A stretch of DNA of 5,288 bases. Origin: a virus (Duplodnaviria > Heunggongvirae > Uroviricota > Caudoviricetes). Shown here piece by piece: positions 2,348 to 5,288 of the stretch. Under the pieces are notes generated by a model. The model was not told the origin of the DNA and did not search any database. It was given only the letters and a program-made list of their open reading frames with translations. Numbering within the stretch: position 1 is the stretch's first letter; every line of letters starts with the position of its first letter. The DNA lies in the IMG/VR virus record IMGVR_UViG_2657244940_000001, positions 1 to 5,288 of that record, one strand, 5' to 3'. Both the position numbers and the translations under genes were made by a program.

Positions 2348-2568
2348 GCGGAAAAAGAATGACTAACAGAGAGCTTGTTGATGCCGCGATTAAGCTTGCT
2401 GGTGATTTTTATTCAATGATGGGGTACGCGCATCGCCCTGGATTCAAATATTGGGAATCACCGCATCCGCAAGAGCAACTGGTATTTCAAATGGCCTGCC
2501 GTGCTTTTGAGGTTATTCGCGGTTCTGATGTGATGGACGCCGTTGCCGACTTGGAGGATGAAGAGTGA
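2344..2568 (+). CDS. Hypothetical small acidic phage protein (74 aa from GTG 2344, or 69 aa if ATG 2359 is used)
   Basis: Lies in the frame of track ORF 2311..2568. GTG 2344 has AGGAGG at 2332-2337 6 nt upstream and overlaps the upstream stop as GTGA. The in-frame ATG 2359 has only a weak SD. The C-terminus is acidic (DLEDEE). Confidence 0.5.
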   Translation: MSGKRMTNRELVDAAIKLAGDFYSMMGYAHRPGFKYWESPHPQEQLVFQMACRAFEVIRGSDVMDAVADLEDEE

Positions 2569-3122
2569 CCCAAATTAACTATCAGGCACTGCGTGAAAAG
2601 GCAGAGAAAGCAACTAAAGGAAGCTACATCGTAGGGCATACATCTGTTAACCAGCACGGCAATTTAACAGGAGTTTTTGTTTGCCAAAAATGGAAAGGAG
2701 AACCCGGTGGCGTGATTGCGGAATGTCATGTTAACTGCCTGATTGAATCAGATGCTCAGGCTTATGCAAACGCTGAATTCATAGCAGAGGCTAACCCGGC
2801 TACCGTGCTGGCACTGCTGGATGAACAGGAAAGAAACCAGCAATACATCAAACGCCGCGACCAGGAGAACGAGGAGATTGCGCTTACGGTTGGGAAGCTG
2901 CGTGTTGAGCTTGAAGCAGAAAAACAGCGGGCAAAAGTTCTATTTATGGAAAATGCTCGGCTTAAGTCAGGCATAGCCGGTCTGATACACCTCGGTATTC
3001 GATATGCAGATGTTGAGGTCATGAAAATTGCTGGAGATGCCCAGCTTTCTACTCCATGCACTGACAGCATCATAAACAGCATTGCAGCAGGCATTTTCAC
3101 CAAAGAGGGGGCAGCACGATGA
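2565..3122 (+). CDS. Ead/Ea22-like family protein (185 aa)
   Basis: GTG start at 2565 overlaps the upstream stop (GTGA), with GGAGG at 2553-2557 7 nt upstream. The first in-frame ATG is far downstream, so the GTG start is needed. The N-terminal QALREKAEKATKG and the internal motif NAEFIAEANPATVLALLDEQE match the signature I recall for lambdoid Ead/Ea22-like proteins, followed by a charged coiled-coil-like segment. Confidence 0.65.
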   Translation: MTQINYQALREKAEKATKGSYIVGHTSVNQHGNLTGVFVCQKWKGEPGGVIAECHVNCLIESDAQAYANAEFIAEANPATVLALLDEQERNQQYIKRRDQENEEIALTVGKLRVELEAEKQRAKVLFMENARLKSGIAGLIHLGIRYADVEVMKIAGDAQLSTPCTDSIINSIAAGIFTKEGAAR

Positions 3123-3304
3123 GAACACTAGAGGTTCGCGCTGAAGACGTAATCCCTGGTGATGTGCTCATAACATCTAAAGGTCAACAATGTGCGGTTA
3201 AATCTTTTTGGATGGAAAATGACAAAGTGACTCTGTTCGGTACGGATGGTTCCGAAACTGATTATGACTACGACGAATTGCTTGTTATTGAGAGAGCTGC
3301 CTAA
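3119..3304 (+). CDS. Hypothetical small phage protein (61 aa)
   Basis: ATG 3119 overlaps the upstream stop (ATGA), with AGAGGGGG at 3104-3110 upstream. Complete ORF, no family recognised. Confidence 0.5.
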   Translation: MRTLEVRAEDVIPGDVLITSKGQQCAVKSFWMENDKVTLFGTDGSETDYDYDELLVIERAA

Positions 3305-3891
3305 TGACCACCTTTACCAAAGAACAGTTAATCTCCCATGCACGCGAAAGCGTTAGTTATCTGGAAAACTTGAAAGGACGTGTTAGCAAAGAAGGTGCGG
3401 ACTGCAAAGTTGTTATTGAGATGGTTGCACGAGATCTAAAACTGGCACGAATTGCACTGGCCTCGCTTGAGGCAAAGCCGGTGGCGTGGAAGGTAACCTT
3501 CACGCAAATTGACCGTGAATATAACACGTTCACTGGTATGTATTCTGACAAAGCAGAAGTCGAACGGTGGGTGCGGCTGCATAAAGCATGTAATTTTCGG
3601 GCAGATATAACACCGCTTTATACCGCCCAGCCAGTGCCGGTAACTCCGGATGCCTGGATAAGCTGTAGTGAGCGAATGCCAGAAATGGGAGAGCGACAAT
3701 GCTATGTGTTAGCTGCTGACTTTAAAAACAACTACCCACCAAACATCCCCAACACTCAGGTCGGCGTATATGGCGACTGGTTTAATGATGGCAAGCCCAC
3801 TTGGGATGACGGTGATGGCGAAGACCTGTATCTCAAGGAGGTAACCCACTGGATGCCGCTGCCAGAACCGCCGCAGGAGGTGAATCAATGA
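3304..3891 (+). CDS. DUF551-domain phage protein (195 aa)
   Basis: ATG 3304 overlaps the upstream TAA (TAATG). The C-terminal region (W-x-C-x-ERMPE ... THWMPLPEPP) matches the signature I recall for the prophage DUF551 family. The N-terminal half is unassigned. Confidence 0.65.
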   Translation: MTTFTKEQLISHARESVSYLENLKGRVSKEGADCKVVIEMVARDLKLARIALASLEAKPVAWKVTFTQIDREYNTFTGMYSDKAEVERWVRLHKACNFRADITPLYTAQPVPVTPDAWISCSERMPEMGERQCYVLAADFKNNYPPNIPNTQVGVYGDWFNDGKPTWDDGDGEDLYLKEVTHWMPLPEPPQEVNQ

Positions 3892-3971
3892 GCTGGCCTG
3901 ATGCAATCGTAACTCTGGGGATGGTATTCGCAGTAGCGTTTGTTGTGTACTCGATTTGTCGATGGGGATAA
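3888..3971 (+). CDS. Small hydrophobic single-pass membrane peptide (27 aa: MSWPDAIVTLGMVFAVAFVVYSICRWG), not in the ORF track
   Basis: ATG 3888 overlaps the upstream stop (ATGA 3888-3891), with AGGAGG at 3875-3880 7 nt upstream. Hand translation runs to TAA at 3969-3971 and contains an 18-residue hydrophobic stretch followed by R-W-G. Confidence 0.45.
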   Translation: MSWPDAIVTLGMVFAVAFVVYSICRWG

Positions 3972-3975
3972 CCAC

Positions 3976-4218
3976 ATGTTCGCTTTGATTCAACGCGGGC
4001 AGATATACACCGATAGTGCTGGCTACCCGATAAAAATTGTTCACTGCATAAACAACACTGTGTTGTACAGAAGAATGGATGGGCGAACACAGTCAGTAAA
4101 AATAAACGATTTCAATGAACTGTTTGAACGGATTGATCACCAGGAATACCGACAAATTCTGGCAGAAACAGAGCAGGAAGCTCATCTGAAAAAATTACGG
4201 GCCATGAAAAGGAAGTAA
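3976..4218 (+). CDS. Hypothetical small phage protein, possibly DUF4222-like (80 aa)
   Basis: The track ORF 3940..4218 is trimmed to ATG 3976, which has GGGGA at 3964-3968 upstream, because the 3940 start would overlap the preceding small ORF without an SD. The DUF4222 resemblance is weak recall only. Confidence 0.5.
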   Translation: MFALIQRGQIYTDSAGYPIKIVHCINNTVLYRRMDGRTQSVKINDFNELFERIDHQEYRQILAETEQEAHLKKLRAMKRK

Positions 4219-4221
4219 ACA

Positions 4222-4368
4222 ATGAATAAAGCATTTGAACAATGGGTCCACCAGCGTTACGGCAATCGCTATGACCTGACACGAGATGTTGACGGTTTCT
4301 ACTGTCGTGAAATTGTGAAACGAATGTTTGAAGTGTGGTGCCACTGCCGTGGGCTGAGTGTTGTGTGA
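4222..4368 (+). CDS. Small Cys/His-containing protein (48 aa: MNKAFEQWVHQRYGNRYDLTRDVDGFYCREIVKRMFEVWCHCRGLSVV), not in the ORF track
   Basis: ATG 4222 lies 4 nt after the upstream stop, with AAGGAAG at 4210-4215 upstream. Hand translation runs to TGA at 4366-4368. It fills the gap before the xis-like gene. Residues C28, C40, H41 and C42 could form a small metal-binding site (speculative). Confidence 0.4.
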   Translation: MNKAFEQWVHQRYGNRYDLTRDVDGFYCREIVKRMFEVWCHCRGLSVV

Positions 4369-4376
4369 GGTAATGC

Positions 4377-4613
4377 ATGGGCAATGTGATTCAACTGGCT
4401 CCCAATGAATGGGTTTGTGAAAGCGTTCTAATCGCAATTACCGGGCTCAAACCAGGCACAATTCTTCGGGCCCGGAAAGAATGCTGGATGGTTGGAAGAG
4501 AGTATATTCACGTATCACCAGACGGTAATCCAAAGCCTTCCAGTGAATGTATGTATAACAGAAAAGCAATAGATGCCTGGGTCGCTTCAATGAAAAACAA
4601 ACAACCTGGGTGA
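4377..4613 (+). CDS. xis: Excisionase-like / AlpA-family HTH DNA-binding protein (78 aa)
   Basis: ATG 4377 has GAGG at 4367-4370 6 nt upstream. It sits immediately upstream of the integrase in the same orientation. The segment IAITGLKPGTILRARKE resembles the AlpA/excisionase HTH motif (ITGLSRSTIYR), and the NEW...W pattern resembles putative prophage excisionases (recall). Confidence 0.55.
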   Translation: MGNVIQLAPNEWVCESVLIAITGLKPGTILRARKECWMVGREYIHVSPDGNPKPSSECMYNRKAIDAWVASMKNKQPG

Positions 4614-4668
4614 TTTAATATCATGAAATATGTAAGCTCGTATCGCTCTTGGGCGTCTGGAGGTATCG

Positions 4669-5288
4669 ATGGATAAAGTCAAATATCCAACAGGCGTCGA
4701 AAACCACGGCGGCACATTACGCATCTGGTTTAATTTTAAAGGTAAACGTGTCAGGGAAAATCTTGGTGTCCCTGACACTGCCAAGAACAGGAAGATCGCC
4801 GGGGAACTGCGGACATCAGTATGTTTTGCCATCCGCACAGGAAGCTTTGATTATGCTGCACAGTTCCCTGACTCCCCCAACCTTCAGGCTTTTGGGGTAA
4901 GTAAAAAAGAAATTACGGTGAAGGAACTTGAAGAAAAGTGGCTGGATCTGAAACGAATGGAAATCTCTGCAAATGCATTCAATCGCTATGAATCCGTTGC
5001 AAGAACGATGGTTTCGAAAATTGGAGGCAGTAGACTGGTGTCATCGGTAACCAAAGAGGAATTGCTGTATATCAGGAAAGATTTGCTAACCGGGTATCAG
5101 AATTCAACGAAAAACAAAGCAGCAGCAAAAGGACGGAGCGTCGTTACTGTAAATTATTACATGACGACAATCGCTGGAATGTTTCAGTTTGCTGCAGATC
5201 ACGGTTACTTAGAAGCAAATCCCTTTCAGGGAATTAAGCCTCTTAAAAGAGCCAGGGCAGAGCCAGATCCGCTAACTCGTGACGAATT
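4669..5288 (+). CDS. int: Tyrosine-type phage integrase, N-terminal ~206 aa (partial, continues past the window end)
   Basis: ATG 4669 has GGAGG at 4659-4663 5 nt upstream. I translated the frame by hand to position 5286 with no stop (MDKVKYPTGVENHGGTLRIWFNFKGKRVRENLGV...). This N-terminal pattern resembles the arm-binding N-termini of enterobacterial cryptic-prophage integrases (recall). It is missing from the ORF track because no stop falls inside the window. Confidence 0.8.
   Translation, partial: MDKVKYPTGVENHGGTLRIWFNFKGKRVRENLGVPDTAKNRKIAGELRTSVCFAIRTGSFDYAAQFPDSPNLQAFGVSKKEITVKELEEKWLDLKRMEISANAFNRYESVARTMVSKIGGSRLVSSVTKEELLYIRKDLLTGYQNSTKNKAAAKGRSVVTVNYYMTTIAGMFQFAADHGYLEANPFQGIKPLKRARAEPDPLTRDE

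Follow-up and report, generated by a model that had tools for sequence, protein, structure and literature searches.

The 48-codon open reading frame at positions 4222–4368 (+) of the viral DNA analyzed here (5,288 nt at its full length and called the window below) is a genuine gene for a small phage protein, which is conserved and held under purifying selection. Weighing all the evidence, we consider it probable that this is an exo-xis gene of a lambdoid prophage, coupled to the excisionase gene (xis) behind it and encoding a metal-independent protein with a protein-binding accessory role. For now the result is an ordinary one: what fills the gap between two annotated genes is a known hypothetical phage gene, and the idea of a zinc site in its product fails on conservation. 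The main lead is that the small gene is persistently coupled to excisionases from several families with no relation to one another, and that it is naturally fused to Xis in two cases.

The window comes from a lambdoid E. coli prophage, of whose early-left operon it represents the distal end; its genes are tightly packed and without exception on the + strand. It opens with a gene for an RdgC-like recombination-associated protein (201–1118; with 91 bits vs 227, its NCBIfam match falls well short of the cut-off) and one for an HD-domain deoxyribonucleoside 5'-monophosphate phosphatase (1209–1745; phrog_318, E 1.7e-109). These are followed by two unknown genes (1736–2347 and 2359–2568), an Ead/Ea22-like gene (2565–3122), a gene for an unknown protein of 61 aa (3119–3304), and a DUF551 gene (3304–3891). 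Next come a 27-aa hydrophobic open reading frame (3888–3971), the gene of an 80-aa DUF4222 protein (3976–4218; Pfam PF13973, E 9.9e-16), the small gene itself, and the gene of a 78-aa excisionase (4377–4613) belonging to DUF1233 (Pfam PF06806, E 9.5e-33) and phrog_539 (E 7.4e-40). The last gene (4669–5288) runs off the end of the window and covers the N-terminal part of a tyrosine integrase, as judged from the tyrosine recombinase annotation in the matching E. coli locus and from homologous integrases in related loci. The small gene is thus co-oriented and tightly packed between early-left accessory genes (Ead/Ea22, DUF551) and the xis-int pair, which is the arrangement that defines an exo-xis gene. 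It would be the last member of the variable accessory block at this end of the operon and, because no promoter or terminator was found in 3800–4800, it is presumably transcribed together with its neighbors.

Two of these neighbors deserve a short comment. The 27-aa hydrophobic reading frame (MSWPDAIVTLGMVFAVAFVVYSICRWG) overlaps the stop of the DUF551 gene in an ATGA and has no PHROG or Pfam match; its product may be a small membrane protein. Relatives occur in loci L005 and L006 (2628–2750, in a 40-aa form) and in L020 (3876–3959), and the 40-aa form is found in RefSeq as WP_255625547.1 (L110, 3950–4072). The DUF4222 protein, the upstream neighbor of the small gene, shares its family with RgdR, which is encoded by a prophage and activates type III secretion in EHEC O157:H7 (PMC10877973); at the place of the RGD motif of RgdR, the window protein carries RGQ. 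Our literature search returned no paper that mentions DUF1233 and none on the 48-aa gene.

The small gene is already catalogued and not new. Its product (MNKAFEQWVHQRYGNRYDLTRDVDGFYCREIVKRMFEVWCHCRGLSVV) is identical to RefSeq WP_001030145.1, a “hypothetical protein”, and is listed in UniRef as A0A0Q3BPY4, a “Bacteriophage protein”; under one or the other of these names, at least 1000 public contigs carry the exact sequence. It is a member of phrog_3871 (function not assigned) that shows no difference from the family, matching the profile end to end (residues 1–48 against positions 1–48 of 48, E 3.5e-35). In the RefSeq locus, WP_001030145.1 likewise lies between a DUF4222 gene and an excisionase gene, in a prophage adjoining a yecE-type DUF72 gene and yecN. 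An earlier note on this DNA, made from the letters alone, had called the reading frame unannotated, which is true for some records (phiP27 and VT1-Sakai) and false for the RefSeq E. coli genomes. The annotation value of the present work is that the gene should be called in those reference phage records from which it is absent.

By itself, an open frame of this length is nothing unusual, as 48 open codons arise by chance in random sequence with a probability of (61/64)^48, i.e., about 10%; the reality of the gene therefore rests on conservation and selection. Both could be established. The conservation check proposed in the earlier note, a tblastn search, recovered the small gene in 49 phage records, including E. 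coli phages, Stx1 and Stx2 phages, Salmonella Fels-1, and Klebsiella phages. Among 5.8 billion proteins searched, the homologs fell into 91 clusters at 90% identity, with members from Escherichia, Shigella, Salmonella, Klebsiella, Enterobacter, Citrobacter, Cronobacter, Pantoea, and Hafnia, so that homologs are spread over the prophages of Enterobacterales. IMG/VR added 452 matching stretches, the best 80 of which are near-identical copies only. For the proposed frame, a comparison of 19 distinct homologous DNA sequences gives a pN of 0.158 and a pS of 0.663 (dN/dS ~0.15), and the differences at codon positions 1, 2, and 3 amount to 0.17, 0.14, and 0.45. Frames +1 and +2 of the same DNA display the opposite pattern (pN 0.27–0.28, pS 0.17–0.21), which marks the overlapping minus-strand reading frames at 4112–4384 and 4195–4437 as by-products. 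Occurrence in many genera, a PHROG family, and a RefSeq annotation all speak against a chance reading frame in an intergenic spacer, and the frame-specific selection refutes it; we regard that explanation as having practically no probability left.

The noncoding readings of the interval fared no better. That it might be an untranslated leader of xis, which would have undone the earlier claim, is not borne out, considering the low dN/dS and a start codon that is invariant among the homologs and preceded by a Shine–Dalgarno sequence. An RNA element was ruled out as well: a scan of the region found no Rfam family, its predicted folds are less stable than those of shuffled sequences (z-scores of +1.75 and +0.48), and neither a promoter nor a terminator is at hand.

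The layout of the gene was described correctly beforehand. It runs from an ATG to a TGA at 4366–4368 and indeed fills the gap at 4219–4376, leaving spacers of only 3 nt from the DUF4222 gene (which ends at 4218) and 8 nt to the excisionase gene (which starts at 4377). The Shine–Dalgarno-like AAGGAAG is present on the + strand at 4209–4215, within the 3' end of the DUF4222 gene and 6 nt ahead of the ATG, and the homologous loci have a GGAGG-type sequence at the equivalent place. Translation would thus start from the gene's own Shine–Dalgarno sequence. At the other end, the junction TGTGTGAGGTAATGC (4362–4376, +) embeds the TGA in the GAGGT ribosome-binding site of xis. This GTGTGAGGT-type junction, in which the last codons plus the TGA form the ribosome-binding site of the next gene, is kept before five different families of downstream genes. 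The distance from the stop to the downstream gene is conserved at 1–9 nt, being 8 nt in 79 of 108 loci. Such a layout, as read from the DNA, suits termination–reinitiation coupling and, with the stop inside the xis ribosome-binding site, translation of the small gene probably feeds ribosomes to xis. A programmed −1 frameshift joining the two genes was also considered and rejected, as a TAA at 4371–4373 lies in the xis frame directly before its ATG.

Taken to its extreme, the embedded stop and the conserved spacing could mean that the small frame is nothing but a leader that delivers ribosomes to xis, with an irrelevant peptide sequence. We consider this very unlikely. The amino-acid sequence is under strong purifying selection and has a confidently predicted fold, and homologs occur in other contexts that lack xis. 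Moreover, xis has a good Shine–Dalgarno sequence of its own, with no RNA structure hiding it. Our preferred reading therefore keeps both parts, namely a translational coupling and a functional product, and it infers from them a small protein-binding accessory factor.

The AlphaFold2 model of this product (pLDDT 86.5) consists of a helix (3–13), a beta-hairpin (~17–27), and a second helix (30–42). In an alignment of 83 cluster representatives, covering positions 5–42, the best conserved residues are F5, Y17, and Y27 (0.99), E6 and E30 (0.96), and D22, M35, and W39 (0.95). The most conserved residues are therefore aromatic or charged, and not Cys or His. We picture the protein as a 48-residue mini-domain that would be held together by the aromatics F5, Y17, Y27, and W39 and would need no metal.

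This contrasts with the proposal in the earlier note, according to which a C-x11-C-H-C motif could coordinate a metal. The motif is certainly there, as C28, C40, H41, and C42 of the window protein, but its candidate ligands are among the less conserved positions of the family. C28 is kept in 71 of the 83 representatives (variants A/S/V/F/R), C40 in 68 (R/Y/S/Q/H/V), C42 in 66 (A/R/H/L/F), and H41 in 57, where ten other residues take its place; all four occur together in only 36/83. The representatives with C40R, with C42R, and with the double change C40R+C42L stand for clusters that comprise tens of members or hundreds of contigs, and sequencing noise is not the source of these variants; C42L, C28S, and C28A are further natural examples. 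In the distant members P0094, P0104, P0105, P0106, and P0108, and in the protein of locus L020 (a fusion to Xis, discussed below), one of these Cys or none is found.

Structurally, too, the case is poor. The model does not resemble a zinc ribbon, in which CxxC/CxxH knuckles sit on hairpins; the 48-aa protein has no CxxC at all, and no zinc-finger Pfam match was obtained even at E values up to 10. C28 precedes the predicted 13-residue helix 30–42 and C40–C42 end it, so that C28 and C40 would be ~18 Å apart and, lying at opposite ends of the helix, C28 and C40–C42 presumably cannot share a metal within a monomer. A zinc-ribbon-like, metal-binding small regulator could still appeal to the motif itself and to the fact that each Cys is kept in ~80–86% of the family representatives, yet the limited co-occurrence, the abundant variants, and the structural arguments make it highly improbable. 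A conserved metal site as a property of the family is not supported by the alignment. The retention of each Cys holds for the closest subfamily, in which these residues might have a role of their own.

What, then, is known about the relatives of this mini-domain? Pfam, NCBIfam, and PADLOC scans of the 48-aa protein yielded no match, and in the PDB the family profile had no match with an E value below 0.6. With Foldseek, the only neighbors in BFVD were uncharacterized phage proteins of 47–270 aa, from phages of Burkholderia, Pseudomonas, Erwinia, Ralstonia, and Acinetobacter, where the mini-domain often forms the N-terminal end of a longer chain. When 1.84 billion proteins were searched exhaustively with the profile, only 28 representatives at 50% identity came up. 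Among these are longer proteins (P0112, P0113) that carry the small module N-terminal to other domains. Proteins of this type share the motif F-E...Y-x-(L/F)-x-x-D-x-(D/E)-G-x-Y...W (family profile E 5e-4 to 8e-4) and match both phrog_3871 and phrog_343. Unlike the window protein, they are longer and have extra C-terminal domains, one of which is a Lar/Elf1-like zinc ribbon; they, too, are uncharacterized.

With no enzymatic or DNA-binding signature in sight, the small protein would most likely act by binding a host or phage protein during induction or infection. Such a role would match what is reported for the small exo-xis genes of lambda, which are nonessential and alter lysogenization and induction (PMC8614690). 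The closest counterparts by position are lambda orf55 (lambdap35) and ea8.5, which, like the window gene, close the series of small genes in the pL operon immediately before xis. For the exo-xis region, the only solved structure is that of Ea8.5; orf55 is predicted to fold into three strands and one helix (PMC8614690), whereas a helix–hairpin–helix is predicted for the window protein. Homology to either of them was rejected, with hhalign probabilities of 0.16% and 0.31%; by these comparisons, both appear to be positional analogs, and not homologs, of the window gene.

The genomic context of the small gene is of particular interest. In a sample of 25 diverse loci, it lies directly upstream of an excisionase-type gene in 16, while its own upstream neighbors vary widely (at least eight families). 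The downstream partners span phrog_539/DUF1233, phrog_2917, phrog_66 (AlpA-like, with a convergent P4-type integrase), phrog_1553, phrog_629/Pfam Exc, and one PrtN-type gene. In five further loci, one to three genes separate the small gene from an excisionase-type gene, and these often encode a LexA-N-like DNA-binding protein. Even among copies sharing at least 94% identity with the window protein, the Xis encoded next comes from either of two unrelated families, phrog_539 in most cases and phrog_2917 in ten, and nearly all of these copies keep the same 8-nt gap to xis.

Two natural in-frame fusions were also seen. In the first, at 3977–4336 of L020, a divergent homolog without the C-terminal tail continues in frame into a DUF1233 Xis. 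In the second (P0172/L111, 2501–2905), a TGA-to-CGA change has removed the stop codon in a lineage that has the two genes in the same frame. Each fusion was seen in only one or two contigs: a search with the L020 fusion as query returned L020 alone, and one with the window Xis as query added a single further case, P0172. In the AlphaFold2 model of the P0172 fusion (pLDDT 60.5, pTM 0.46), the linker is disordered, and the model says little about how the two parts might dock.

Distant homologs, on the other hand, are found in nin regions with no xis nearby. The gene order is NinH–homolog–MT-A70 methyltransferase in L101 (homolog at 2521–2670), NinG–homolog–...–antiterminator Q in L103 (3001–3153), and RusA–...–homolog–Q-like, followed by lysis genes, in L016 (3001–3144).

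These observations can be read in several ways. The small protein resembles the excisionases and recombination directionality factors (DUF1233, AlpA-like, lambda Exc, and PrtN-like) in its small size, operon, adjacency, and the two fusions. It differs from them in sequence, as no excisionase match was obtained in Pfam, PHROG, or NCBIfam, and in structure, as the two helices and hairpin of its model contain no helix-turn-helix or winged helix. A directionality role, which the earlier note had brought up for small proteins next to xis, is at most weakly suggested by the synteny. A dedicated excision accessory factor that acts physically or functionally with Xis, be it by stabilizing it, timing excision, or modulating directionality, would account for the persistent position upstream of such diverse partners and for both fusions. 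We nevertheless judge it unlikely, although not to be dismissed. The near-identical copies in front of two unrelated Xis families argue against a specific protein–protein fit, the nin-region homologs do without xis, and the swapping of int-xis cassettes would keep the genes adjacent without any functional link. Each fusion is limited to one or two contigs and the one fusion model shows no confident docking; the fusions indicate that closeness to Xis is at least tolerated.

A more speculative variant, to which we give a still lower probability, makes the protein a general excisionase partner: a small regulator or cofactor for Xis proteins from at least five unrelated families, to which it would be tied by translational coupling and occasionally by fusion. 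The step on which it acts would then be common to all of them, for example how well Xis withstands host proteases, when excision takes place, or a host factor used by all, like IHF or Fis. If true, it would represent a component of lambdoid excision control that has not been described before.

The reading that we prefer, a small accessory factor that binds another protein and is produced along with Xis, is our best guess from sequence and gene order. That the same module also occurs in nin regions, and at the N-terminal end of larger phage proteins, is consistent with a generic accessory role. Its adjacency to xis could be explained by its position as the last gene of the left arm, combined with exchange of int-xis cassettes at the conserved junction; equally, it could reflect a shared step of excision. 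Speaking against a generic accessory role, the persistent place before excisionase genes and the two Xis fusions could point to a more specific role in excision. If the xis-coupled position does reflect function, the small protein would be a new player in the control of prophage excision, including that of Shiga-toxin phages, which carry a 44-aa variant.

This variant ends in ...CHCRG and is present in Stx2a_WGPS2 (L003), VT1-Sakai, and further Stx1/Stx2 phages. Behind it come a gap of 128 nt and an N-terminally truncated excisionase of 46 aa, the whole arrangement lying at 2501–2904 in L003; the stretch in these phages that matches the start of the Fels-1 xis runs into a stop codon after six codons. 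A different irregularity is seen in L005 and L006 (the Shigella flexneri and E. coli ECMA0423 representatives), where the excisionase (3156–3353) is 65 aa long and divergent beyond residue 55, with no integrase reading frame downstream within the stretch read. This prophage appears to be degraded at the excisionase.

In the Pantoea loci, a protein of 120–130 aa with a LexA-type N-terminal DNA-binding domain adjoins the small gene, either between it and xis or just upstream (L014 and L018, both 3141–3503; L019, 3327–3695; L015, 2619–3008); the PF01726 scan behind this assignment covered L014 only. Finally, copies with 79–83% identity are found in two records assigned to Flavobacteriales, namely L011 (titled Chryseobacterium sp. 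18061) and OM284015 (Elizabethkingia phage EKP1). The former is flanked by a P4-type integrase gene and, by eye, an exonuclease I-like gene, much as is the Kosakonia locus L013 with its closely similar flanks, and the Flavobacteriales copies are likely due to contamination or mislabeling.
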